A DNA stretch of 64,000 nucleotides from positions 139,163 through 203,162 of the forward strand of contig JBJXGE010000032.1 of NCBI GenBank assembly GCA_046154185.1, read 5' to 3'. The notes below the pieces were generated by a model, which was given only the letters and a program-made list of their open reading frames with translations, ran no database searches and was not told where the DNA came from. The DNA is from Planctomycetota bacterium. Its GTDB lineage: Bacteria > Planctomycetota > UBA8108 > UBA1146 > JAJFFE01. The position numbers were made by a program, and so were the translations under genes. This document shows, one piece after another, positions 579 to 55,530 of this stretch (the stretch's first letter is position 1; each line of letters begins with the position of its first letter).

Positions 579-2249
579 GTGATGAGCTTTGAGGAGGCAG
601 CCGAAGTGATACCTGAGCTTCGCAACGAGTCGGATCGGCTACGCAGTCACTTGGAACTCGTACGCGCCGTCGTGCGTGGTGCTGCTACGCCCCGTGCAAA
701 CGCGCACGCACGCGGGGCAGGAACCGCCGAGCGCAACGGCGGCTTCGGAGCCCGAACCAAAGAAGGCGCCGACGAACCGAGCGATGAAGGCGCCAGCTTC
801 GAAGAGCGGGAGCCAAAAGACGAGGAACTCGACGCCGTCCACGAAAACACCTACGGGGCACTGACAGCGCGCGAAGCCGATGATCTGGCATTTCGTTCGC
901 TCGACGATCCCGTTCGTATGTACTTCGCGCAAATGGCGGCGATCCCGCTCCTCACGCGCGAAGAAGAGATTCGGTATGCGCGTGAGATCGAAGAATCGCG
1001 GCAGAAACTCAAACGCTTGATTTTTCAGACGGCGCTTGGTCAAGAGCGCGCGGTGCTGCTGCTCGAACAAATCGACGACCATTCGCAGCTCGTCGAGAAA
1101 TCGCTCGACCTGAATCTGTCGCGCAAAGGCGATCGCAGCCAATTTTACGATCGCATCCGACGCGAGATTCCGCTGCTGCGCCGCAGCCTCAGCGAGAATC
1201 GCAAGGACTTCGCCGCACTCCAAGCTCTCGAACCACAGCAGGTGCTCGAGCGCCAAAAAATCGATCGTCGACTTGCCCGCCGCATCAACCGCGTCGTGCG
1301 GCTGTTGGAAGCCTGCGACATCAAGATGAAGTTCCTGACCCGATGGCAATCCGAGATCAACAAGCTCGGTCGCCATTTGGAATCCGAACTGCCGAAGATG
1401 CAGGCAAAGAACCGCATGTCGTCGGCGCCGCAGCACGAAGAGATCAACGGCGCGACGCTCGAGAGCTACGCGGGTTTCATCGAGCGCGCACGCGAGATCG
1501 GTCGTCAGTTTCTGCGGTACGAAGTCGCAAAAGGCAAACTTTCGTCAGGCAACTTGCGGCTGGTTGTCAGCGTCGCAAAGAAGTACCGCGGCCGCGGCTT
1601 GTCGTTCTTGGATTTGATCCAAGAGGGCAACACGGGCCTCATGCGCGCTTGCGAGAAATACGAGCATCGCAAGGGCTACAAATTCAGCACGTACGCGACT
1701 TGGTGGATTCGGCAGGCGATCTCGCGCGCGATTGCGGAGAAATCTCGCATGGTGCGCTTACCGGTTTACATGTCGGAAACAATGGCGCGCCTCAACGCAT
1801 TCACGCGCGATTTCATGCAGCGCACGGGCAACAAACCGGATCTGCACCTCATCGCCGAAGAATTGGAAATGCCGGAGATCGAGATCCACAAGATCATTCG
1901 AATGTCACGGGTGCCGCTCTCGCTCAGCAACCCGATGGGACAAGACGAGGATTCGTCGTTCGGTGACTTCCTCGCCGACCTGGCGGTTGAGTCGCCGGAC
2001 ACGCCGCTCACGAGCGCGGCGCTCCGGGATCGGTTGCGATCGACACTCGAGTCCCTCAGCATGCGCGAACGCGAAGTGATCAAGATGCGCTTCGGGATCG
2101 ACCGCGACTCGACGTACACGCTTGAGGAGCTCGGCAAGAAGTTCAAAGTCACCCGCGAGCGCATTCGTCAGATCGAGATTCGCGCCCTGAAAAAACTGAA
2201 ACATCCGATCCGTGCGCGCAGCCTCGAAGGGTTTCTTGACGAAGTGTAA
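579..2249 (+). CDS. rpoD: RNA polymerase primary sigma factor (sigma-70 family, group 1-like). Start codon uncertain, so the acidic N-terminal extension may be shorter.
   Basis: Region 2 motif [21 protein letters not shown], region 4 motif [29 protein letters not shown], and the long acidic region-1-like N-terminus. Confidence 0.9.
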
Positions 2250-2425: not shown

Positions 2426-2467
2426 GGAGCCTCTCTCACCCCCCCCGAGAGGGGCTCCTCTTTTTTT
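2426..2467 (+). terminator. Rho-independent terminator downstream of rpoD
   Basis: ggagcctctctc / gagaggggctcc 12-bp stem with one mismatch and a C-rich loop, followed by TTTTTTT at 2461-2467. Confidence 0.6.
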
Positions 2468-2535: not shown

Positions 2536-3141
2536 CTAGAAACCAACCGCGCGATGCGAAGTTGGCTCGAATTGAGCGAGCTGCGCCAACTGGAATTGCG
2601 TCGTGACGCAAAGGTGCCCGTTCACGTAGGCCTGACCGGAAACACGGCGTTCAGCCGAGACGTCCCCGGTCGCGACAACGTGCGGGATTGTGTCGAGCAG
2701 TTGCACGCTGAGCACGAGCTGCCCCACTTCCGTGATCTCGCGCGCCACGTCGAAGCTCTCCACACTCGCGAGCAACCACTGCCGTAGTCGAGGGCGCCGA
2801 GCAATCGGCTGCGCCGCGCTTTCATAGTCGAGCACGACCCCAGCGAGTTGCGCCAATGCCTCGAGCGCAAACGTCGACGGAAATACGAAACCGTGGCGGC
2901 GCTTGGCTAGCCCGCTCTCGTTGCCGGTCAGTGACTTAATCCCGACGCCGCTCTGCCCGGGAATCAACGTGAGCACACGATCGAGCAAGAGTTGCGGCTT
3001 GCGATGCGAGAGTATCCCTTGAATTTCTTCGTTCTCGAGTTGCAGCGCACCGCCGTGTAATGCACGCCGCAACGCGTCGACGCCGTTTGTCGACGGCTCC
3101 GACGGATGACCTCCGGTCTCGACGCTTGGCAATGAAATCAA
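2536..3141 (-). CDS. FabZ-like hot-dog fold dehydratase (divergent; the N-terminal ~40 aa may not be translated)
   Basis: HRKPQLLLDRVLTLIPGQSGVGIKSLTGNE ... FALEALAQLAGVVL matches the FabZ pattern (PHRYPFLLVDRV...GIK.VT.NE ... LEA.AQ), but the canonical GHFP motif is replaced. Confidence 0.5.
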   Translation of the reverse strand: MISLPSVETGGHPSEPSTNGVDALRRALHGGALQLENEEIQGILSHRKPQLLLDRVLTLIPGQSGVGIKSLTGNESGLAKRRHGFVFPSTFALEALAQLAGVVLDYESAAQPIARRPRLRQWLLASVESFDVAREITEVGQLVLSVQLLDTIPHVVATGDVSAERRVSGQAYVNGHLCVTTQFQLAQLAQFEPTSHRAVGF

Positions 3142-18975: not shown

Positions 18976-20496
18976 TTACCGCAAACAGTCGAGCCCGTCG
19001 AGCGTCGGATCCGGTCCGAAGGAATCATCGCCCGGTAGCGGGAGCGGCGGTGCCGACTGAAAGAGCCGCGCGAGCACACTCACGGCATCGGCGAGATTGA
19101 GCGCGCCGTCATCGTTCGAGTCCGCGGCATCCGCGCACGCGACGGCAGCTCCGGCGAGAAACAAATAATCCAGCAGGCGGATCGCGTCGCTGATATCGAC
19201 CGTCCCGTCGAAATTCGCGTCGCCGCGGCGAAAATACGCACGCAAGCACGGCTGGTCAAATGGCGGGGCTAAAGCCGCAACGCGCGGATCCGTGAGGCCG
19301 AAGGTGAGAAAGTCCACGAGTCGGACTTTGTCCTCGTCGAGCAGGTCGAGCACAAACATCTCGGGATCCAAATGATCGTCGAACTCGCCGCCGATGTCGT
19401 AGAACTCCACCACCTCCATGAGCGTGGACTTGCCGCCGTTATGAAAATACGGCGCCGTCAAACCCACGTTACGCAAGCTTGGTGTCTTGAACTTGCCGCG
19501 GTCGTCGAACTGCAATGTCACTTCCATGCGACCCACATCATCAAAGCTCGGTCGCACGCCAATGTTGTGGTAGTCCCCATCGTTGAGCGTCGCCCCGCCA
19601 TGACACCCTGCACACAGATCGATGAAGAACAACATGCCGACGACCTGTTCATCACTCAATGCGTCGGATTGGCCGCCGAGAAAGAGATCGAAAGGCGTTT
19701 GGTCGGGAACCAACGTCCGCTCGTAGCTCGCGATCGCGAACGCGATCCGAGCTGGTGTAATCTCGCTATCACCGAATGCGAGCGCAAACATATCCGGGTA
19801 GTCGAGCCCGGCGGCGCGCGCGGCCGCGAGGTCGACGGGCAAGTCCGAACCAAGTGCGAGAGGTGTGACGGTTGCGAGTTTTTGCTCGACATCGCTCCAC
19901 GTGCGACCGACACAGCTCATTTCGGCAGCCGACAGTATTGGCGTGAGCGCTTGGTTCTCGAGCGCGCCGCCAGCGGGAATCAGGGTTTGACCCGTGATAG
20001 GGTTGATGAAAACCTCTCCGGCTGCGCCGTTCCAAAAAACCTCTGGATCGTACGCGGAGGCGATCACCGAAGACGCGTTGCGGCGCGTCACTTGACGATC
20101 GGGATGGAACACGCCGTCGTCGATCGTCGCCCCGCCGCAATCATGACGCACGATGCCGATGGAGCCGAGCGCATCGTCACCGGTGCCGAACAGCAAGTCC
20201 GCCCCGGGATGGCGCGACAGCGGCGAAAACGCCCGCGCGTCGGCGCCGCCCGCCGTCATCGCGTGGCAGCTTCCGCACGCGACCGTGTCATCCGCGCTCA
20301 ATTGTTCGTCCCAAAACAGGAACTTGCCGAGCAGAGCCTTTTCAGCCGTGAGCGGATTTTCGGGCGGCACGGGCGGCGGCCCGAGCGGAATCGGTGTCAC
20401 TTGCGCAATGAGTCCCGCCGCGCCAAGCGCGAGAAACCCGCAAACCCAAGCCAAGCGCCCGCAGCGAGCCGCTGCGTTGAGTTTTACGCTCTGCAT
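18976..20496 (-). CDS. Di-haem cytochrome c peroxidase (CCP/MauG family) with C-terminal dockerin-type repeat
   Basis: Two haem-binding motifs CGSCH and CAGCHGG. C-terminal GDANFDGTVDISDAIRLLDYLF ... ADSNDDGALNLADAVSVLARLF dockerin type-I-like repeats. N-terminal signal peptide. Confidence 0.8.
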   Translation of the reverse strand: MQSVKLNAAARCGRLAWVCGFLALGAAGLIAQVTPIPLGPPPVPPENPLTAEKALLGKFLFWDEQLSADDTVACGSCHAMTAGGADARAFSPLSRHPGADLLFGTGDDALGSIGIVRHDCGGATIDDGVFHPDRQVTRRNASSVIASAYDPEVFWNGAAGEVFINPITGQTLIPAGGALENQALTPILSAAEMSCVGRTWSDVEQKLATVTPLALGSDLPVDLAAARAAGLDYPDMFALAFGDSEITPARIAFAIASYERTLVPDQTPFDLFLGGQSDALSDEQVVGMLFFIDLCAGCHGGATLNDGDYHNIGVRPSFDDVGRMEVTLQFDDRGKFKTPSLRNVGLTAPYFHNGGKSTLMEVVEFYDIGGEFDDHLDPEMFVLDLLDEDKVRLVDFLTFGLTDPRVAALAPPFDQPCLRAYFRRGDANFDGTVDISDAIRLLDYLFLAGAAVACADAADSNDDGALNLADAVSVLARLFQSAPPLPLPGDDSFGPDPTLDGLDCLR

Positions 20497-20791
20497 TTTT
20501 TTCCTGGCGAGTCAAGTTGAGTGTCGAGTAGTTCGCCCGTCAAACCGAGGAACAAGATATAGGTAGCGAACGCGCGTGGCTAGCGTCGTTGCACGCAGCG
20601 CGCGTAGCTCCGCGTCCGGTGGCGGGCTGCGGAGATTCTTTTTCGCCAGGACCGAGTCTTGCGGCGCGGCGGCATTGAGAAACGACAGCGGCGCCGAAGC
20701 CACTGTTTCGGCGCCGCTGTCGTATTCCGTGCGAACTTCTAGGCCTCAGACCAGCCCGATGCTAAGCATTCGCGTCACGCAGTTGGCGTTG

Positions 20792-21595
20792 CTAAAAGTT
20801 GGAGACACCCATGTCGCGGAGCGCCGTGCGAACCTCCGCGGCGCACCGGCGCGCATCGCGCGCGAGGTCATCGATACGGGCGAACTCCCGTTCGATTTCT
20901 TTGAACAGTTCGAGTGCGGTCAACAACTGCTTTTGCGCCCGGAGGCTGGCGGCTTCGAGCAAGAGTTCGCGGCCGATACTCACCAGATCCGCCTGATCCG
21001 CCTCGACCTTCGCCAACACTTGGCCGGTGAGTTTGTCCTTCTGCTTGGACAAGCGCTCCAGCAGCAGCAACGCTTTCGCGTACTGCTTGTCGTCGATGTG
21101 TTGACGCGCCTCGCGCTGCATCCCGAGGTGCTTTTCCTTGAGTTCGACGCGCTTCTCGTTCAGCGCGAGCGCCGAGCTGATCACTTTCTGATATTTCTTC
21201 GGATCCGTGCAAGTCTGCACTTTGCTCAGGAGTCCGCCCTCGACGTCGAGCAAGAGCAACGCCGGCTTGCTTCGATCGAGTTCGAATCGCTTGACCATGA
21301 GATCACCGGCTTGGGCGAAAGTCGTCTTCACGCATTTGAAATTCAGCGCGACGTCAACCACCGGCTTGTAACGAAAGATCGAGCGCTCGAAGTTGGCGGC
21401 GCAACAATCTTCGTTCATATTCTCGGCATAAACGTAAACGAGAATCGGCCGCAGCGAGCCTTCTTCTTGGTTGATCGCCCGCTCGAGCGTCAATTGAACC
21501 CAGGGCAGCCGATTGTTTTCACCGGGCACAAACGGTTCTTGTCCGGCAGCGCCACCACCGCGAGGGCCGCTACTTGTTCCACCGCCACCGCCCAT
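20792..21595 (-). CDS. Thioredoxin-fold (Thioredoxin_7/DUF255-like) domain followed by a coiled-coil region. The ORF may extend upstream through an in-frame TGA to 21721 (see findings).
   Basis: LRPILVYVYAENMNEDCCAANFERSIF...KPVVDVALNFKCVK resembles the thioredoxin-like fold around the redox-motif position. C-terminal half is helical and K/E/L-rich. Preceded in the same frame by a TGA, and before that a 25-aa signal-peptide-like ORF with a good SD. Confidence 0.55.
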   Translation of the reverse strand: MGGGGGTSSGPRGGGAAGQEPFVPGENNRLPWVQLTLERAINQEEGSLRPILVYVYAENMNEDCCAANFERSIFRYKPVVDVALNFKCVKTTFAQAGDLMVKRFELDRSKPALLLLDVEGGLLSKVQTCTDPKKYQKVISSALALNEKRVELKEKHLGMQREARQHIDDKQYAKALLLLERLSKQKDKLTGQVLAKVEADQADLVSIGRELLLEAASLRAQKQLLTALELFKEIEREFARIDDLARDARRCAAEVRTALRDMGVSNF

Positions 21596-23230: not shown

Positions 23231-24829
23231 ATGGAAAGGTCGGTCAACATGCTCACGGCCAATCGCCGCGGGAGCTCTGAACGCGGCACGATTCTCATCT
23301 TGGTCATCGTGCTGGTGCTGACAATCAGTCTGATTGTCGCTGGCGCGGTTTCGACATCGTTCCATCAAGGCCGCAATACGCAGTACTCGCTCGCCCAAAC
23401 GAGCGCGCTATCGCTCGCCGAGAGCGTGACGGAAACTGCGCAGAAAAACATGCTGACCCAAGTGGCGAACTACGAGACGCCCACGCTCTCTGGCTCGCTC
23501 ACGATGGGAGGCACGCCCTATGACTACACGATTGAGCCGGTCGGCGTGCAGATTCAGCGCGCCGATGTCGACGGTGTGACTATGACGATCCAGCCGTACC
23601 GCATTCGCTCGTCGGTCGAAGTCGATCGCGGCGGCGCCACCGTGCATCGCATCGTCGAGCTCACGATGACACCCATCTTCCAATACATGATCTTCTATCG
23701 CGACGACCTCGAGATCCTGCCCGGCCCGAGCATGACGCTCGGTGGACGCGTGCACTCTAACGGCAGTATCTACGTCGGCTGCGGCAACACGCTCACCGTC
23801 AACAGCGACTACTTTCGCTGTACGGGCAAGATCCTGCGAGAGCGTAAGAATGACGGCAGCGCCACGGGCGGCACCGTCAACATCAAGGAATATCAAGACA
23901 CGAGCTACACCAACATGACGGCGTCGATGGACGCCGACAACCCGGATTGGACGAATCTCGCGCTCAATACTTGGCACGGCACCGTGATGGACGGCAGTCA
24001 TGCCGTCAATGAGGTCGCGGCCCCGTCGATCGCCAGCATCAAGGCGTTTCCTTCGCCCGGTGTGAAGGGCTACTTCCACGAGCACGCGGACCTCGTGGTG
24101 GTGGACGGCGTCGCATACGACCGCACTGGCACGGTTCTCACGCTGCCGGCGGGAACCGTGACCCAGCGCACCATGTACGATGGTCGCGAAAATCGCAACG
24201 TGACCGTCAGCGAGATCAACGTCGGTCTGCTCAACAGCTCCGGCGCGTTTCCGGCGAATGGATTGATCTACGCCTATCGCACGGACGCGTCGGCTGCGCA
24301 GCCGAACGGCATTCGGTTGACGAACGCGACCGAAATCCTCGCGCCGATGACGGTCGTGAGCGAAGACCCGGTCTACGTGCACGGAAACTTCAACACGGTG
24401 AACAAGAAGGGCGCTGCTGTCATCGCGGATGCCGTCAACTTGTTGTCACAAAACTGGAATGACACCAAGACGGCGACGAGCGGTCTGCCGAGCGCCGCGC
24501 CGACGACTTACAACCTCGCGATGGTGACCGGAATTGTCCCGACTCCGGATGGCGGCGGCTCGTACTCCGGCGGCTTCGAAAACCTGCCGCGTTTCCATGA
24601 GAACTGGTCGGGAGTCTCCTCGACCATCAATGGCGCGTTCATCAACTTGTTCGACAGCGAGATCGGCCGCGCACCGTGGATGTACGGCGGCCGCGCCTAC
24701 ACCGCGCCCATCCGCAACTGGGCCTTCGACCCCATGCTGCAAGACATCGACAATATGCCGCCTTTCACACCGAACGCGGTTTACTTCCGCCGCGTGGTGT
24801 GGGACGACGCCGTGCCGCTGCCGTTCTAA
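23231..24829 (+). CDS. Large PilX-N-like / minor pseudopilin-like protein with a beta-rich C-terminal domain
   Basis: RRGSSERGTILILVIVLVLTISLIVAGAV N-terminus resembles the PilX/GspK N-terminal domain. Third gene of the pseudopilin cluster. Confidence 0.6.
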   Translation: MERSVNMLTANRRGSSERGTILILVIVLVLTISLIVAGAVSTSFHQGRNTQYSLAQTSALSLAESVTETAQKNMLTQVANYETPTLSGSLTMGGTPYDYTIEPVGVQIQRADVDGVTMTIQPYRIRSSVEVDRGGATVHRIVELTMTPIFQYMIFYRDDLEILPGPSMTLGGRVHSNGSIYVGCGNTLTVNSDYFRCTGKILRERKNDGSATGGTVNIKEYQDTSYTNMTASMDADNPDWTNLALNTWHGTVMDGSHAVNEVAAPSIASIKAFPSPGVKGYFHEHADLVVVDGVAYDRTGTVLTLPAGTVTQRTMYDGRENRNVTVSEINVGLLNSSGAFPANGLIYAYRTDASAAQPNGIRLTNATEILAPMTVVSEDPVYVHGNFNTVNKKGAAVIADAVNLLSQNWNDTKTATSGLPSAAPTTYNLAMVTGIVPTPDGGGSYSGGFENLPRFHENWSGVSSTINGAFINLFDSEIGRAPWMYGGRAYTAPIRNWAFDPMLQDIDNMPPFTPNAVYFRRVVWDDAVPLPF

Positions 24830-24867
24830 TCGCGCTCGGCACGCCAGCGATCGAGTCGACATGAAAA

Positions 24868-24911
24868 GCCCCTGCGATCCGAGTCTTGAGATCGCAGGGG
24901 CAGCTTTGTTT
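24868..24911 (+). terminator. Strong hairpin terminator after the pseudopilin operon. Probably bidirectional, also serving the minus-strand small gene ending at 24953.
   Basis: Perfect 12-bp stem gcccctgcgatc / gatcgcaggggc with a 10-nt loop, followed by agctttgttt. On the minus strand the hairpin is followed by ttttcat. Confidence 0.6.
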
Positions 24912-24952
24912 GAGTGAGCTTGCGGCCTGCGTCGGCGGCGCGAGCACCGCGG

Positions 24953-25177
24953 CTATTTCGCGTTGTCGGTCGACGCATCATCGACAAAAGTCCAGCCGCA
25001 GGCTTTGCACTCGATCGCGTCCGTGGGTATCTCACCGCCGCAACCCAAGCACTGTTGCTCGGTCGCGTCGAGGCGAGCCTCGAGGATTTTTTTCCGCGCC
25101 CGTAACGTCTCGGGCGCCGCACCAAGACCCAGCAATTCGCAAATTGATTCCACGACAAAGTCAATGCCGTGCCACAT
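24953..25177 (-). CDS. Small zinc-ribbon-like protein (hypothetical)
   Basis: 74-aa ORF with CLGCGG...CKACG Cys pairs. No further support. Confidence 0.3.
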   Translation of the reverse strand: MWHGIDFVVESICELLGLGAAPETLRARKKILEARLDATEQQCLGCGGEIPTDAIECKACGWTFVDDASTDNAK

Positions 25178-25269
25178 TGTGATTGCCTCAATTACCGAGT
25201 TGGGCGTCAGGTATCTGAACTCGAAAATTCGCTCTCACCGTCGTAGGAACTGACAACCGCGCGTCGTTC

Positions 25270-26640
25270 TCACAGCACGCCGCGCCGCCAGTCGCCCCAC
25301 ATCGCGACCGTCATGCCGGGCGTCTGCAGGTTAAAGAAGAGCGTCTCACCGTCGGGACTGAAGTTGACGCCGCAAAACTCGGTGTTGAATTTCAGATTGC
25401 GCACCAAGTCGAAAATTTCACCGGTGGCGGTGAGACCGCGCATGTACTGAACATTTAGGCAGTCCTCGCACAACACTAACGCGCGGCGCGGACTCACGCA
25501 CAAGTTGTCGGGGTTCTGGAGCACCGCGGCCGAACGCGATTCGAAGACCAGCGTGAGTTCACCGTGATCGGCGCCTCGTGGCGTGTAGCGCCAAACCTGA
25601 CCGAGTTTCGCGTCGCCGCCGTCGGTAGCGGTCACGAAGATCGATCCATCGCCGTACCAACAGCCTTCGAGACGCGAAAAGGTTGCGGCGCCGAGCGCCT
25701 TGCCCTGTTCATAGACGGCCTGCGGTCGAAGTTCCGCCGGGACTGGATCAGGATCCGCGATCGGCACCCAATGACAATTTCTCACGACTCCCGCGACTTG
25801 GCCGGTACGCGCGTCGAATCCCGGATGATCCGTCACCGCCAACATCTCTAGTTGACCACCCGCGTGGAGATCTTGCGGTTGCCGCGGAATGAATCGATAG
25901 AGTCCCGCGGTCGGCCAATCCTCTGTCTCGTAGACGATGCCCGTCGCTGGATCGATCGCAATCGCCTCATGAACGAAGCGGCCCATCGCGCGGATGGGCT
26001 CAGCGCGGCGCACGTCATCAGCCCGCGCCGGCACCTCGAAACAGTAACCGTGTTCGCGTTCGAACCCGCCGTGTTCAGCCCCCGTCGCATCCGTGAAGCG
26101 CGCGACACCGTCGGTGCTCTCTTCGCAACTGATCCAAGCCCCCCACGGCGTCGGACCGCCCGCGCAGTTTTTCGTGGTGCCGCTCAAACTGATCCATGCG
26201 CGTTCGAGTCGGCGCAAGGTCGGGTCGATCACCAAGGTCGTCGTGCCACCGGCCGCGCTCGGGTCAAAAGAGTGCGCAGGCGCTGCCACGCAAACTCCTC
26301 GCGGCGAGACCTCGTGATTGCGAACAATGCGAATCTTGCCGTCGACGAGGAACGACGCCATTCCGTCGTGCGCCGGCGGAGTCAGCCGGCCGTCCGCGAG
26401 CGGGTCACCCACGCGCCCGAAAATGCGATACTTGAAACCGGTCGGCATGGCGAAGGCCAGCTCGCCGGTATCCTCTTCGGGCGTCGGAACGAGCGGGCCG
26501 TACCCGCCGATACAGCGCGCGGCGGGCACGTCACTCCCGATTGCAAATGCGCGACCGGCGGATCGACGGCCAAGTTGGCCGAGTCCGTACGCGCTGGCCA
26601 AGATTCCGAGCTTGAGGAACTCCCGGCGTCCGATCGTCAT
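25270..26640 (-). CDS. Tat-secreted PhoX/DUF839 family protein (putative phosphatase)
   Basis: Twin-arginine signal MTIGRREFLKLGILASAYG. NCAGGPTPWGAWISCEE and FSPDGETLFFNLQ motifs typical of the PhoX/DUF839 beta-propeller family. The ORF-track extension up to 27105 is a translation of the tandem DNA repeats and is not counted. Confidence 0.75.
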   Translation of the reverse strand: MTIGRREFLKLGILASAYGLGQLGRRSAGRAFAIGSDVPAARCIGGYGPLVPTPEEDTGELAFAMPTGFKYRIFGRVGDPLADGRLTPPAHDGMASFLVDGKIRIVRNHEVSPRGVCVAAPAHSFDPSAAGGTTTLVIDPTLRRLERAWISLSGTTKNCAGGPTPWGAWISCEESTDGVARFTDATGAEHGGFEREHGYCFEVPARADDVRRAEPIRAMGRFVHEAIAIDPATGIVYETEDWPTAGLYRFIPRQPQDLHAGGQLEMLAVTDHPGFDARTGQVAGVVRNCHWVPIADPDPVPAELRPQAVYEQGKALGAATFSRLEGCWYGDGSIFVTATDGGDAKLGQVWRYTPRGADHGELTLVFESRSAAVLQNPDNLCVSPRRALVLCEDCLNVQYMRGLTATGEIFDLVRNLKFNTEFCGVNFSPDGETLFFNLQTPGMTVAMWGDWRRGVL

Positions 26641-26780
26641 CGTGAGGCGCCTCTCGCGTCTGAAGTCACATTTACGACTAGAGCTTACTTCGGCAGGGAG
26701 TCGCGCATCGACGAATAATTTCGGGCGCATTTTGTGTGAAGAAACGGCGTGAAGCGAGCGAAGGCAACGAACGGGCGGCG

Positions 26781-26941
26781 TGAGCCGTTTCGGGTCCCTC
26801 CGAAACGATAGGGAAGTTCCGCTGAAGCCACTCGTACGCCACTCACCTCCGGAGCGGGCGGGACGCCCGCGCTCGCATCGGAGCACGCATCGCCGGAGGC
26901 GCGATCGTGTGGGGTGAGCCGTTTCGGGTCCTCCCGAAACG
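26781..26941. repeat. Two copies (26781-26807 and 26914-26941) of a ~30-nt element gtgagccgtttcgggtcc(c)tcccgaaacg, each forming an 8-9 bp hairpin
   Basis: Direct reading: cgtttcgg(g)/(c)ccgaaacg stems with tccct/tcct loops. Copies are ~138 nt apart within a 717-nt intergenic region. Confidence 0.6.
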
Positions 26942-26945
26942 GCAT

Positions 26946-27062
26946 GGGGTGCTGAGGACAGCACCCCAAAAAAAACGGTGCTGAGGACAGCACCCCAAAA
27001 AAAACGGTGCTGCGGACTGCACCCAAAAAAAAACGGTACTGCGGACAGCACCCCAAAAAAAG
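26946..27062 (-). terminator. Tandem array of four ~29-nt units (ggtgctgaggacagcacccc + A8-9 on the plus strand). On the minus strand each is a GC hairpin followed by T8-9, i.e. three to four consecutive rho-independent terminators.
   Basis: Units at 26946-26976, 26977-27005, 27006-27034 and 27035-27062. Stem GGTGCTG/CAGCACC, loop AGGA; copies 3 and 4 carry point differences. Lies downstream of the 27358 gene end and upstream of the PhoX-like gene, both on the minus strand. Confidence 0.6.
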
Positions 27063-27357
27063 ATGGACCGGGAGTGTAGGCTCGAAAACTCGCCGGTCCA
27101 TCCAACCAAATGAAAGCCGCTCAGCACATGGCAATGCACGTGCCATCGGCAAAAGACGGGTAGGCATGGACCCTCGGCGATTCGATACGTCGCGCGGCAA
27201 ACAGCACTTCAGCATTCACTTAGCGACGGTGCGCGGCGACAGAACTATTTTCATGTCGGACGAATTCTCTGCGCGACGAAGGAAAGCCGGGCAATTCGCA
27301 GCCGCCACGTCGCTCAAGCTGTCGGAAAGTCCATCGCGGTCGGCGCCGCGGTCCGGC

Positions 27358-27846
27358 TCATTCCTCTTCGCGAGCGACCGCATCGCGACTCGAGCGGGGC
27401 GCGCGACCCTGCAAATACGATCGCGCCGGATTCACGAGAAATCGGCGCCGCACGGACTCGCGACCCAGCAGCATGCGAAATCCCATCGCATGCCGACTCG
27501 TCAGAGACAACTCGATCGGAAATCGTTCGTCGTTCAATTCCAACAATGTCGAGATCACCCAGCGCAGCTCTTGCTGGCCGCTCGAGTTTCGCACGTGCCG
27601 GCGATCGATCACCGGCGCGCGCGCGAGAATCGGCCGCGCATCGTCCTGTTGGTGGGGAAAAACTTTGAACCGCAAATAAAGCGTGCCGGCGCGCCGGTAC
27701 TCATTGACGTCGACGGCATGCAAGACGGACGTGCGCGCCCCGGTGTCGACTTTTGCTTCGAGCGACTTGATCGCGAGCTCCGGCAGACACACCCATTCAC
27801 GCCAGCCGATCACCGGGAGACTGCGCCGCCGGGGTGCATTCTTCAT
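27358..27846 (-). CDS. Retropepsin-like putative ATP-dependent zinc protease family protein (RimK-associated type)
   Basis: IGWREWVCLPELAIKSLEAKVDTGARTSVLHAVDV matches the conserved core of this family. Start set at MKNAPRRR. Confidence 0.6.
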   Translation of the reverse strand: MKNAPRRRSLPVIGWREWVCLPELAIKSLEAKVDTGARTSVLHAVDVNEYRRAGTLYLRFKVFPHQQDDARPILARAPVIDRRHVRNSSGQQELRWVISTLLELNDERFPIELSLTSRHAMGFRMLLGRESVRRRFLVNPARSYLQGRAPRSSRDAVAREEE

Positions 27847-27927
27847 TCGCGAATTCCACCTTGCGTTCGCGCGTACTGTCGCAACTCCGGACACGACCCG
27901 TCCGCACCGACGGTGCGACCGCGGCCA

Positions 27928-28785
27928 TCATGGGCAATTCGCCGCGCCACCGCAATCGAGCGTATCGCCGGAGGGGTCGATACCGCATAGCGGATACGGT
28001 GCCGGAAAGGCCGGCCCGCTCTCAAATAGGAAATTCAGGTGATAAACGGCATCGGCGAGATTGACTTGCCCGTCGTCGTTGCAATCGAGCGCATCCACGC
28101 ACGACGCACTCACGCCCTCGAAGAGCACCAGCAAAACTAACACGCTATCCGCGATGTTCAGGTTGCCGTTGCCGTTCGTGTCGCCACGGACAAAGGGTAA
28201 ACCAAGGTCCGGGACGAGCGAGACGAGACCACTGTCACCGGTTGCGAACCGCTCGGTCAAACCGATCACGACGACGTTTGCAACCGCCGGCGCGCCGAGC
28301 GTCGCGTCGTAATCGAGCGAGCTATCGACGCCGGTGAGATCGCCGATGAGCGCTGCGGCCTGCGTCGAGTAATCGAGCGAGAGCACGGGCTGGGCCGTAG
28401 GAAAGCTGATGGGCGTCGACATGTTGAACGTGTAGACGCAACCCACGGTGAACCCATCGATATAGGTATTCACGGCGAAAAATTCCGGGCCCGTGCCGCC
28501 GCTGAGCGCGGCGAGAACGCCAGTTGGCGCAACGCCATCGATGAGCAAATAAGTCTCGTCGTGCCGTACGCCGAGCGAGAGGGCCAGCGTGGCATTTGGA
28601 AAGCCGGCGCTCGATCCAAGTTCCGTGACGCTCGCGGAAATCGTGAAGCTCGCGACGCCATCCGCGGGTTCATATTCCACGGTGACATCCGGCAGCGAGA
28701 ACACAAAACCCTGCGCTTCTACCTGCGCCGTCGTCGCAACAATCAGCAACGCGAACCCAATGCAAACCGCTCTCGCCAGCCGCAT
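27928..28785 (-). CDS. Secreted hypothetical protein with C-terminal dockerin-type repeat
   Basis: Signal peptide MRLARAVCIGFALLIVATTAQVEA. GDTNGNGNLNIADSVLVLLVLF ... DCNDDGQVNLADAVYHLNFLF dockerin type-I-like repeats. Confidence 0.65.
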   Translation of the reverse strand: MRLARAVCIGFALLIVATTAQVEAQGFVFSLPDVTVEYEPADGVASFTISASVTELGSSAGFPNATLALSLGVRHDETYLLIDGVAPTGVLAALSGGTGPEFFAVNTYIDGFTVGCVYTFNMSTPISFPTAQPVLSLDYSTQAAALIGDLTGVDSSLDYDATLGAPAVANVVVIGLTERFATGDSGLVSLVPDLGLPFVRGDTNGNGNLNIADSVLVLLVLFEGVSASCVDALDCNDDGQVNLADAVYHLNFLFESGPAFPAPYPLCGIDPSGDTLDCGGAANCP

Positions 28786-39977: not shown

Positions 39978-40005
39978 TTGCATAAACTACTCCGCCGAAT
40001 ATTGT
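39978..40005 (+). promoter_or_regulatory. Candidate sigma-70-type promoter for the Bcp gene (TTGCAT - 16 nt - TATTGT)
   Basis: Hexamers read at 39978-39983 and 40000-40005, about 90 nt upstream of the ATG at 40094, which has GAGGAAGG as its SD. Confidence 0.35.
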
Positions 40006-40093
40006 GGCGGCCAGCGTGGGTCTTGGACGGTCTTCGACACGCAGTTGGCCGACAGGATTGACTCGGGAAGTTCAGCGCGAGAGGAAGGCCGAA

Positions 40094-41014
40094 ATGGCCA
40101 AGGCGAAGAAAAAAACCGCGAAATCCAATGCCGGCAAAGCCGCCAAAAAGCAGGCTCCCAGCAAGAAAAAGCCGACCGCCAAAAAGAGCGCGACCAAAAA
40201 GTCAGCGGCGTCCTCGGCGAAGACCTCGAAGAAAGCCGGCAAGAAACCGACCGGTACTAAGAAGAAAGTCGCCCCGAAGAAGCTCACCACCAAAAAAGTC
40301 GCCGCCAAAAAAACGGCGAAGAAACCGGCCAAGCCGAAAGCCAACTTGAAGGCGAAGACGACACGGCAGACAGGTCGTAGCGCGCCGGTGACGACGTCGG
40401 ACAGCCTACTCATCGCCGCGAGCTCGAGGCAGCCGGCTGCCGTCGCGCTCGCGCCGGAGCTGCACTCCGCGGTCGGCCGCCAACTCCCGGCGCTGACGCT
40501 CAACAATCAACGCGGCGAGGCAGTGCACTTGCACGACCTCGCACAGCGCGCGGGCCGACTCGTCCTCTACTTCTATCCAAAAGATGACACCCCAGGATGT
40601 ACGACCGAAGCTTGCGACTTTCGCGATCAGCACAGTCGCGTGCTCGCGACGGGTGCGATGATCGTTGGCGTGAGTCCGGACGATACCGAGAGCCACGCGA
40701 GCTTCGCTGGCAAATATCAGTTGCGTTTCGATTTGCTTGCGGACACCCAACATGAGCTCGCCGACGCGCTGGGAGTCTGGAAATTGAAGGAATTTAGCGG
40801 TCGACAATTTCATGGCGTGGAGCGAGCGACGTTTATCGTCGATCAGGACGCTCGCGTTCTCAGAGGCTGGCAACCGGTCAAGGTGGACGGCCATGTGCAG
40901 CAAATCGTCGACGAGTTGGAGCGTCTGCCAATGACCTCGGGCGAAACAGCACTCGCGACAGCGAGCGCCGGCGGCGGAAACGGCGACGCGTTGAACGATT
41001 TCTTCAAGACGTAA
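40094..41014 (+). CDS. bcp: Peroxiredoxin Bcp (thioredoxin-dependent thiol peroxidase) with ~100-aa N-terminal histone-H1-like Lys/Ala-rich tail
   Basis: FYPKDDTPGCTTEACDFRD peroxidatic/resolving Cys motif. N-terminus MAKAKKKTAKSNAGKAAKKQAPSKKKPTAKKSATKK...KKPAKPKANLKAK. Confidence 0.85.
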   Translation: MAKAKKKTAKSNAGKAAKKQAPSKKKPTAKKSATKKSAASSAKTSKKAGKKPTGTKKKVAPKKLTTKKVAAKKTAKKPAKPKANLKAKTTRQTGRSAPVTTSDSLLIAASSRQPAAVALAPELHSAVGRQLPALTLNNQRGEAVHLHDLAQRAGRLVLYFYPKDDTPGCTTEACDFRDQHSRVLATGAMIVGVSPDDTESHASFAGKYQLRFDLLADTQHELADALGVWKLKEFSGRQFHGVERATFIVDQDARVLRGWQPVKVDGHVQQIVDELERLPMTSGETALATASAGGGNGDALNDFFKT

Positions 41015-55428: not shown

Positions 55429-55530
55429 GCGAACTAGCCCCAGAACAAGCGCTGCGCGCGTGTTCTGGGGCTAGCTTTTTCCTGTCGGTGTTGCTCCAAC
55501 ACCCCTGTACGAGTCGCGCTTGTTTTCGGA

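Follow-up and report, generated by a model that had tools for sequence, protein, structure and literature searches.

Why should the spacer between two co-directional genes contain four near-identical palindromes in a row, each accompanied by a homopolymeric run that makes the series look, on one strand, like a battery of transcription terminators? The question is posed by a locus in the DNA of a Planctomycetota bacterium, of which we analysed a stretch of 64 kb (hereafter, the window). A sequence-only reading of the window had described four tandem units of ~29 nt, with variants in copies 3 and 4, and its description is borne out both by Tandem Repeats Finder and by direct reading. The array, read on the minus strand, occupies positions 26948–27061 and comprises 3.9 copies with a period of 29 (92% matches, no indels); its score of 193 is the highest of any repeat in the window and three times that of any other. 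A search with the 29-mer allowing ≤3 mismatches returned three matches versus 0.00 expected from 100 shuffles, and runs of seven or more A or T residues are otherwise rare in the window, the GC content of which is 62%. For genome scanning, the unit can be written as the search pattern GGTGCTGNGGACAGCACC, with ≤3 mismatches. The tandem repeat is real, highly non-random and non-coding.

All four units are oriented head-to-tail and abut each other. On the plus strand, each consists of an 18-nt core hairpin, GGTGCTG-(A/C)GGA-CAGCACC, followed by CC, a run of seven to nine A and a C, and on the minus strand the order is, accordingly, U-run, GG, hairpin with a UCC(U/G) loop, and G. Unit 1 (u1, 26948–26976) and unit 2 (u2, 26977–27005) are identical (GGTGCTGAGGACAGCACCCCAAAAAAAAC). 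Unit 3 (u3, 27006–27034) departs from them by three differences, namely, an A>C change in the loop, an A>T change in the stem and a change from CCCC/A8 to CCC/A9, whereas unit 4 (u4, 27035–27061) has a G>A change in the stem, an A>C change in the loop and a run shortened to A7. Several trivial explanations could be discarded. ORFs with the translation FFGVLSSAP cross the array in three minus-strand frames, and the earlier view of them as artefacts holds: a coding array was rejected given that a period of 29 nt is not divisible by 3, that the ORFs are products of frame shifting and that the homology to PhoX begins at the ATG at 26640. A CRISPR array was likewise rejected, the units being abutting and the A/T run being the sole material between the hairpins, with no unique spacers. 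No tRNA or tmRNA was found within the window, a scan of the whole window at the Rfam gathering thresholds gave 0 hits, and a permissive E-value scan of positions 26600–27400 retrieved only unrelated sub-threshold matches (scaRNA, Burkholderia ncS25/54 and Guanidine-II at 14 bits).

The genes on both sides of the array are transcribed from the minus strand and, in agreement with the sequence-only reading, encode a zinc protease-like and a PhoX-like protein. Upstream lies a gene for a putative ATP-dependent zinc protease (Zn_protease, 27358–27894; Pfam PF05618) and downstream lies phoX (25270–26640; PF05787), the gene for a PhoX alkaline phosphatase with a Tat signal. They belong to a minus-strand run of genes for leucyl aminopeptidase (M17), YchF, a dockerin-like secreted protein, Zn_protease and PhoX. 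In the annotated MAG, the Zn_protease and PhoX of the window have counterparts with 100% identity, P0121 and P0001, respectively, and these are encoded, together with an RpoD that likewise matches that of the window at 100%, on a single NCBI contig of 292,372 bp; the annotated MAG Zn_protease starts at M17, which corresponds to position 27846. The spacer between the two genes is 717 bp long, and the array begins 296 nt past the Zn_protease stop (27358) and ends 306 nt ahead of the phoX start. The same spacer holds a separate 40-nt local repeat in two copies that are 85% identical and 134 nt apart. The first copy, D2a (26768–26807), carries an 8–9-bp hairpin, and the second, D2b (26902–26943), an 11-bp perfect hairpin, GCCGTTTCGGG-TCCT-CCCGAAACGGC (26918–26943), which adjoins unit 1.

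An RNA polymerase that leaves Zn_protease on the minus strand would transcribe, in this order, an imperfect hairpin (hpB), a canonical terminator-like hairpin followed by U7 (hpA), u4-G-U9, u3-G-U8, u2-G-U8, u1 and the D2b hairpin. The consensus terminator scan called u2, u3 and u4 as stem + G + T8–9 on the minus strand. The hairpin of u2 has 7 bp (−11.2 kcal/mol) and is followed by G and U8 (26968–26975); that of u3 is reduced by an A.A mismatch to a 5-bp stem with a CGGA/UCCG loop (−7.0 kcal/mol), followed by G and U8 (26997–27004); and that of u4 forms seven pairs, including a G.U (−8.7 kcal/mol), followed by G and U9 (27025–27033). The hairpin of u1, the last of the array on this strand, can be extended into its flank to form a 10-bp perfect stem, TGGGGTGCTG-AGGA-CAGCACCCCA (26945–26968, −20.2 kcal/mol), with no U-run behind it. 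The count of three complete hairpin + U modules and one hairpin lacking the U-run, as given by the sequence-only reading, is hence correct according to both the terminator scan and folding; the accompanying statement that the U-tract follows the stem immediately has to be amended, because a single G intervenes between each stem and the U-run behind it.

The hairpin that comes first on the transcribed strand had escaped the sequence-only reading. hpA (27055–27102, minus strand; GAUGGACCGG...CCGGUCCAUC) has a stem of 10 + 4 bp (14–15 pairs, positions 27102–27062) with a folding energy of −22 to −24 kcal/mol, and leads directly into U7 (27061–27055), which is the fourth A/T run of the array. Just upstream of it, hpB (27117–27151, minus strand; tail UUUCAUUU) forms 13 pairs, including three G.U, on the minus strand (−17.0 kcal/mol) versus 10 pairs on the plus strand (−13.3 kcal/mol). 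With a score of the d'Aubenton-Carafa type, which is indicative only, hpA reaches +22, compared to −0.4 for u2, −9.3 for u4 and −22.9 for u3; the modules of the array score as borderline terminators due to the G spacer and the short stems. Hairpin + U-run terminators at further gene ends of the window (2427–2467, 24868–24901 and 55434–55481) have stems of 11–15 bp, and hpA belongs to this class, whereas the 7-bp units do not. hpA probably serves the Zn_protease transcription unit as its main terminator, at which most transcripts would end.

These observations bear directly on the proposal that the array is a dedicated insulator, in which four units were selected as serial terminators so that hardly any transcription of the Zn_protease unit would reach phoX, a phosphate-starvation gene. 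The geometry is in line with it, in that, on the strand that encodes both neighbours, three hairpin + U8–9 modules follow one another behind hpA + U7, and phoX genes are typically under tight Pho control; furthermore, the substitution in the stem of u4 preserves pairing through a minus-strand G.U. However, the stem of u3 is broken, the units score as borderline or negative, hpA looks strong on its own, and the identity of two units points to recent slippage rather than to a design maintained over a long time. The same unit is, moreover, found elsewhere as a solitary copy that is not a terminator (see below). We therefore regard a dedicated insulator as unlikely, and the description of the array as a set of serial identical terminators made for that purpose is not supported.

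A search with the 18-nt core allowing ≤3 mismatches uncovered this solitary, fifth copy 24 kb from the array, as a match at 2501–2518 with a single mismatch, which produces a CGGA loop (0.01 expected). The similarity extends over 33 nt on the plus strand (2487–2519; 30/33 identical positions including the A/T run, and 17/18 in the core) and was recovered by BLAST with 91% identity and E-values of 2e-4 to 2e-3 within the window, the A/T run and CGG being part of the alignment. On the plus strand, this copy reads CCGUUUUUCUUUGU-GGUGCUG-UCCG-CAGCACC. It resides in the convergent spacer between rpoD (579–2249, plus strand) and a FabA-like gene (2536–3141, minus strand), 19 nt behind the rpoD terminator, a canonical hairpin + U7 (2427–2467, plus strand). 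The core palindrome is thus extragenic and present in two intergenic regions. No further diverged copies were detected in the window (≤9/31 or ≤4/18 mismatches, or short-word BLAST).

The fifth copy is the centre of a 22-bp extended hairpin (2485–2535), the 5' arm of which is rich in U and the 3' arm rich in A on either strand, and which folds with −34.4 kcal/mol on the plus strand versus −29.5 kcal/mol on the minus strand. Being 5' of the hairpin, the U-run leaves a single unit without terminator function; downstream of the hairpin, both strands lack a U-run (nT = 0), and the solitary copy is a terminator on neither of them. When both loci are read in the UCCN orientation, their layout is the same, with a canonical hairpin + U7 terminator followed by a U-rich run and then by the core hairpin. 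It follows from this shared layout that the U-run is to be counted as the 5' part of the unit, and, consequently, that the terminator geometry of the array is a by-product of tandem repetition: it emerges when one unit is placed behind another and is not a property of the unit itself.

Does the unit, then, represent a repeat dispersed through the genome, the finding that, according to the sequence-only reading, would speak for a MITE- or REP-like origin rather than for dedicated terminators? The fifth, intergenic copy 24 kb away supports dispersal, although the known loci are only two and both fall within the window. With respect to a MITE, the U-rich and A-rich arms of the solitary copy pair with each other, and a target-site duplication is not recognizable in this one solitary copy. 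Among the alternatives that had been listed for the array, a MITE/REP-like expansion and a slippage hotspot fit best. We interpret the array as a VNTR-like local tandem amplification of a short dispersed REP-like palindrome, for which two loci are known, both within 64 kb.

Comparison with other genomes is consistent with a recent origin of the element. The nearest RpoD homologues are 69%–75% identical, and in three relatives the sequence 3' of rpoD can be aligned with the window as far as the end of the terminator, which is retained, but lacks the hairpin element. Across the five loci fetched from relatives (~56 kb, two of the loci being duplicates), there was no core with ≤4 mismatches and no A/T run of ≥7. 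The solitary copy is therefore an addition specific to the lineage of the window, which is what a dispersed or mobile repeat of young age would be expected to show. For PhoX and Zn_protease, the next-best homologues show only ~60% protein identity. In the public collections, a degenerate 26-mer fitting all four units had 0 matches in GTDB representative genomes and 0 in JGI metagenomes, and a 23-mer consisting of the core plus flank had 0 in metagenomes and 0 in IMG/VR. With the core by itself, there were at least 103 singleton matches in unrelated taxa, a count of the order expected by chance, and none among the matches listed was flanked by an A-run.

The substitutions within the array allow its history to be tentatively reconstructed. 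Read on the transcribed strand, the element of ~33 nt comprises CCG, a U-rich run, GG and a 7-bp GC hairpin with a UCCG loop. The CGGA loop is probably ancestral, given that it is common to u3, u4 and the solitary copy, and these three copies look older, whereas u1 and u2, which are identical and both carry AGGA, look recently duplicated. The A/T runs and the CGG present at both ends of the unit could provide the microhomology for replication slippage, and the element has presumably been duplicated at 26948–27061 by slippage between A/T runs, in what we infer to be at least two rounds. The uncompensated stem changes in u3 and u4 suggest that the individual hairpins are under weak or no selection.

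The array might also have no role whatsoever at the RNA or DNA level, that is, transcripts would already end at hpA and the repeat behind it would be an inert, slippage-prone VNTR drifting neutrally. The strength of hpA and its position upstream of the units on the transcribed strand are compatible with such neutrality, as are the uncompensated stem mutations of u3 and u4 alongside the identity of u1 and u2, and the absence of the solitary copy from relatives. Yet a polymerase that reads through hpA still meets the hairpin + U8–9 modules, some effect of which is expected from the established mechanism of intrinsic termination, and the G.U asymmetry discussed below hints at a constraint on the RNA. 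We consider complete inertness to be rather improbable.

The strand on which the structure matters can be judged from the non-Watson–Crick pairs. The stem variant of u4 pairs as G.U on the minus strand (−8.7 kcal/mol), but the plus strand has A.C, a mismatch, at this place (−4.0 to −4.8 kcal/mol), whereas the stem of u3 is mismatched on both strands and, hence, uninformative in this regard. Because of this G.U, the three G.U pairs that hpB forms on the minus strand only, and the long stem of the solitary copy, which is 5 kcal/mol better in the UCCG orientation, the evidence favours RNA-level structure on the minus strand, in the UCCN orientation, at the array.

The opposite strand nonetheless deserves consideration. 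Hairpins with an NGGA tetraloop are a known target shape of RsmE/CsrA, and on the plus strand every unit displays a GGA tetraloop (AGGA, AGGA, CGGA and CGGA) in spite of the other substitutions, as does the solitary copy on its own minus strand. Positions 26945–27062 of the plus strand could, accordingly, be imagined as a small RNA that exposes four (A/C)GGA tetraloops, 29 nt apart and separated by A8 linkers, and titrates a protein of the CsrA/RsmA type, in the manner of CsrB and RsmX-Y-Z, with which it would share repeated GGA-loop hairpins at a spacing that fits CsrA dimers. Unlike those RNAs, the plus strand of the array possesses neither a promoter nor a terminator of its own: no hairpin + U-run follows the array, and the sole promoter-like site on this strand is weak (9/12, 26690–26719) and far off. 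Neither did the Rfam scans described above yield a match, the pair closing the loop is G-C as opposed to the A-U of the ANGGA consensus, and the G.U/A.C asymmetry points the other way. CsrA has been reported in Planctomycetes, which is in favour of such a sponge, but its control there is reported to proceed through FliW and not through sRNAs (PMC4682653). A titrating RNA at this locus would be the first CsrB-like one in Planctomycetota, where FliW is regarded as the only route of CsrA control; we deem it extremely unlikely.

The palindrome might also act as DNA. In this case, the 18-bp sequence GGTGCTG-N4-CAGCACC would serve a dimeric regulator (of phoX, for instance) as operator or, as described for REPs, bind a protein of the nucleoid or gyrase type. 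In favour of this, the palindrome is perfect (7-N4-7) and occurs four times in a row upstream of phoX, and IHF, gyrase and Pol I are known to bind REPs (PMC2817692). However, the array lies 306–420 bp upstream of the phoX start with a 29-bp spacing that is out of helical phase, a second copy occurs at an unrelated locus, there is no Pho box of the Escherichia coli type, and the G.U asymmetry argues for structure at the level of RNA. We accordingly consider an array of binding sites very unlikely. The search for a Pho box (E. coli type, ≤5 mismatches) yielded as its sole match the unit itself, against a background of 129 matches in the window, and the candidate was rejected, as this single weak match within the background has no 11-bp direct-repeat partner. 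DNA bending by phased A-tracts was rejected as well: 29 bp would correspond to 2.76 helical turns, placing the tracts out of phase.

Taken together, these considerations lead us to favour, as on balance probable, an explanation whereby a REP-like element that had settled behind a terminator was amplified by slippage and now acts as a set of redundant back-up terminators. Tandem repetition would place a U8–9 run one base behind each preceding hairpin. RNA polymerase leaving Zn_protease would first meet hpA + U7, where most transcripts may end, and, given the established way in which intrinsic termination works, the three weaker hairpin-G-U8/9 modules could then catch a part of the read-through. 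Redundant termination of this kind would, in sum, shield phoX, which is regulated separately, from upstream transcription. Such shielding is more probably a side effect of the amplification, tolerated or of slight benefit, than the purpose of a designed insulator. Whether both loci exemplify a rule, by which an untagged REP-like mini-element comes to lie immediately behind intrinsic terminators and gives rise to further terminator modules through tandem duplication, is a more tentative proposition, which we consider possible rather than probable. If the element is abundant genome-wide, it would provide a concrete example of terminator modules arising by tandem duplication and add an untagged, A/T-run-bearing family to the few REP-like families described in Planctomycetota. 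For annotation, the locus is a caution that a row of 'identical terminators' can be a side product of the amplification of a small palindromic repeat that, as a single copy, does not form a terminator. The array is also a candidate VNTR marker for an uncultured lineage and, as a compact natural multi-terminator, a candidate part for genetic insulation.

How does the array compare with systems described in other prokaryotes? In its serial arrangement, with hairpin + U-run modules lined up on the transcribed strand and the strong one coming first, it resembles tandem back-up terminators such as T1-T2 of E. coli rrnB. Natural tandem terminators are normally unrelated in sequence, whereas the three modules of the array are copies of one 29-nt unit; unlike those of the rrnB T1-T2 type, they also share their U-runs with the neighbouring unit and carry a G spacer. 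Sequence conservation is a feature of TRIT, a dispersed terminator hairpin of Mycobacterium that is present in 147 copies, overlaps stop codons and lacks a U-run (PMC3152330). The unit is likewise a sequence-conserved, lineage-restricted palindromic hairpin located at gene ends in a high-GC genome but, in contrast to TRIT, it includes a homopolymer run of 8–9 nt, sits behind existing terminators and has been tandemly amplified.

The closest parallels are with the REP/BIME elements, which share with the unit the format of short (about 20–40 nt), GC-rich imperfect palindromes that are extragenic, located at the 3' ends of genes and present at more than one locus, as well as tandem reiteration, including head-to-tail. 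REPs occur in Planctomycetes, often tandemly reiterated, with head-to-tail arrangements known (PMC3733652), and REP/BIME elements have been described as affecting termination and mRNA stability (PMC3733652; PMC2817692). The array would also act much as those REP/BIME clusters do that dampen transcription at the ends of genes. The unit cannot, however, be assigned to the classical tagged REPs, as defined by their GTAG or CGTC tag (PMC3733652), since neither GTAG/CTAC nor CGTC/GACG lies beside any of the five cores. No Y1 transposase/RAYT was found among the 26 window proteins scanned with Pfam (of ~47 called genes). The unit further differs from REP/BIME in that it includes an A/T homopolymer run, and from BIMEs in that the array is strictly head-to-tail with a 29-nt period as opposed to alternating in orientation. 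The copy number of REPs is typically high (>100); for the unit, two loci are known within 64 kb. In its format, finally, the array recalls the mycobacterial MIRU VNTRs; although MIRUs are 40–100 nt long and often involve small ORF overlaps, they too consist of head-to-tail copies of tens of nucleotides, with point variants, in the intergenic regions between co-directional genes.

Roughly 215 nt 3' of rpoD are kept in relatives, despite an RpoD identity of just 69-75%. The conserved region lies on the plus strand (2285-2470) and has its counterparts in three fetched loci, L104 (9725-9930), L107 (11625-11805) and L106 (9747-9967). Within it, a 15-bp stem (GCGTGGCCGGGG...CCTCGGCCACGC), in which three positions carry compensatory changes in three sequences, surrounds the invariant block ATGCCCCCT and is followed on its 3' side by a conserved terminator. 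The Rfam gathering scan returned no matches for this region, where rpoD of this Planctomycetota clade may have a structured 3'UTR or give rise to a 3'-derived sRNA.

Besides the array of 29-nt hairpin units, the spacer upstream of phoX holds a second, unrelated direct repeat, the two 40-nt copies of which (26768-26807 and 26902-26941) are 85% identical and 134 nt apart. Each copy contains a strong hairpin, GCCGTTTCGGG-TCCT-CCCGAAACGGC, of 11 bp and approximately -21 kcal/mol, the loops reading AGGA and AGGGAC on the minus strand; no further copies were present in the window at up to three mismatches. Outside the source MAG, the closest homologues of PhoX itself (gene 25270-26640) reach no more than 60% identity, and those with a named source belong to Acidobacteriota, Armatimonadota and Chloroflexota rather than to Planctomycetota. 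Because the named homologues come from outside the phylum, the sequence comparison hints at horizontal acquisition of phoX, although its GC3 of 0.73 is typical of the window. On the other side of the gene, a 440-nt gap (24830-25269) separates the phoX stop (25270) from the convergent plus-strand gene 23231-24829 and includes a hairpin with a 12-bp stem and U-rich tails on both strands (24868-24901), which has the appearance of a bidirectional terminator, as well as a second hairpin followed by T7 on the plus strand (25068-25093). A small gene or sRNA could lie between the two.

The longest perfect hairpin of the window, with a 17-bp stem (ACGACAGCGGCGCCGAA-N8-TTCGGCGCCGCTGTCGT; 20682-20723) and no U-run after it, occupies the spacer between the di-haem peroxidase gene (18976-20496, minus strand) and gene 20792-21595. 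The secreted protein encoded at 18976-20496 has a dockerin/EF-hand-like motif at its end (…DSNDDGALNLADAVSVLARLF…), and so, in similar form, does another, also on the minus strand (27928-28785; …DCNDDGQVNLADAVYHLNFLF…). Neither motif was called by Pfam, which gave no match of any kind for the protein at 27928-28785. Finally, the plus-strand gene 40004-41014 is the source of most other A runs in the window, with several runs of A6-7, and contains 15-nt tandem repeats rich in Lys, Ala and Pro codons (TRF 40265-40312); its product resembles basic proteins of the histone-H1-like or AKP-repeat type.
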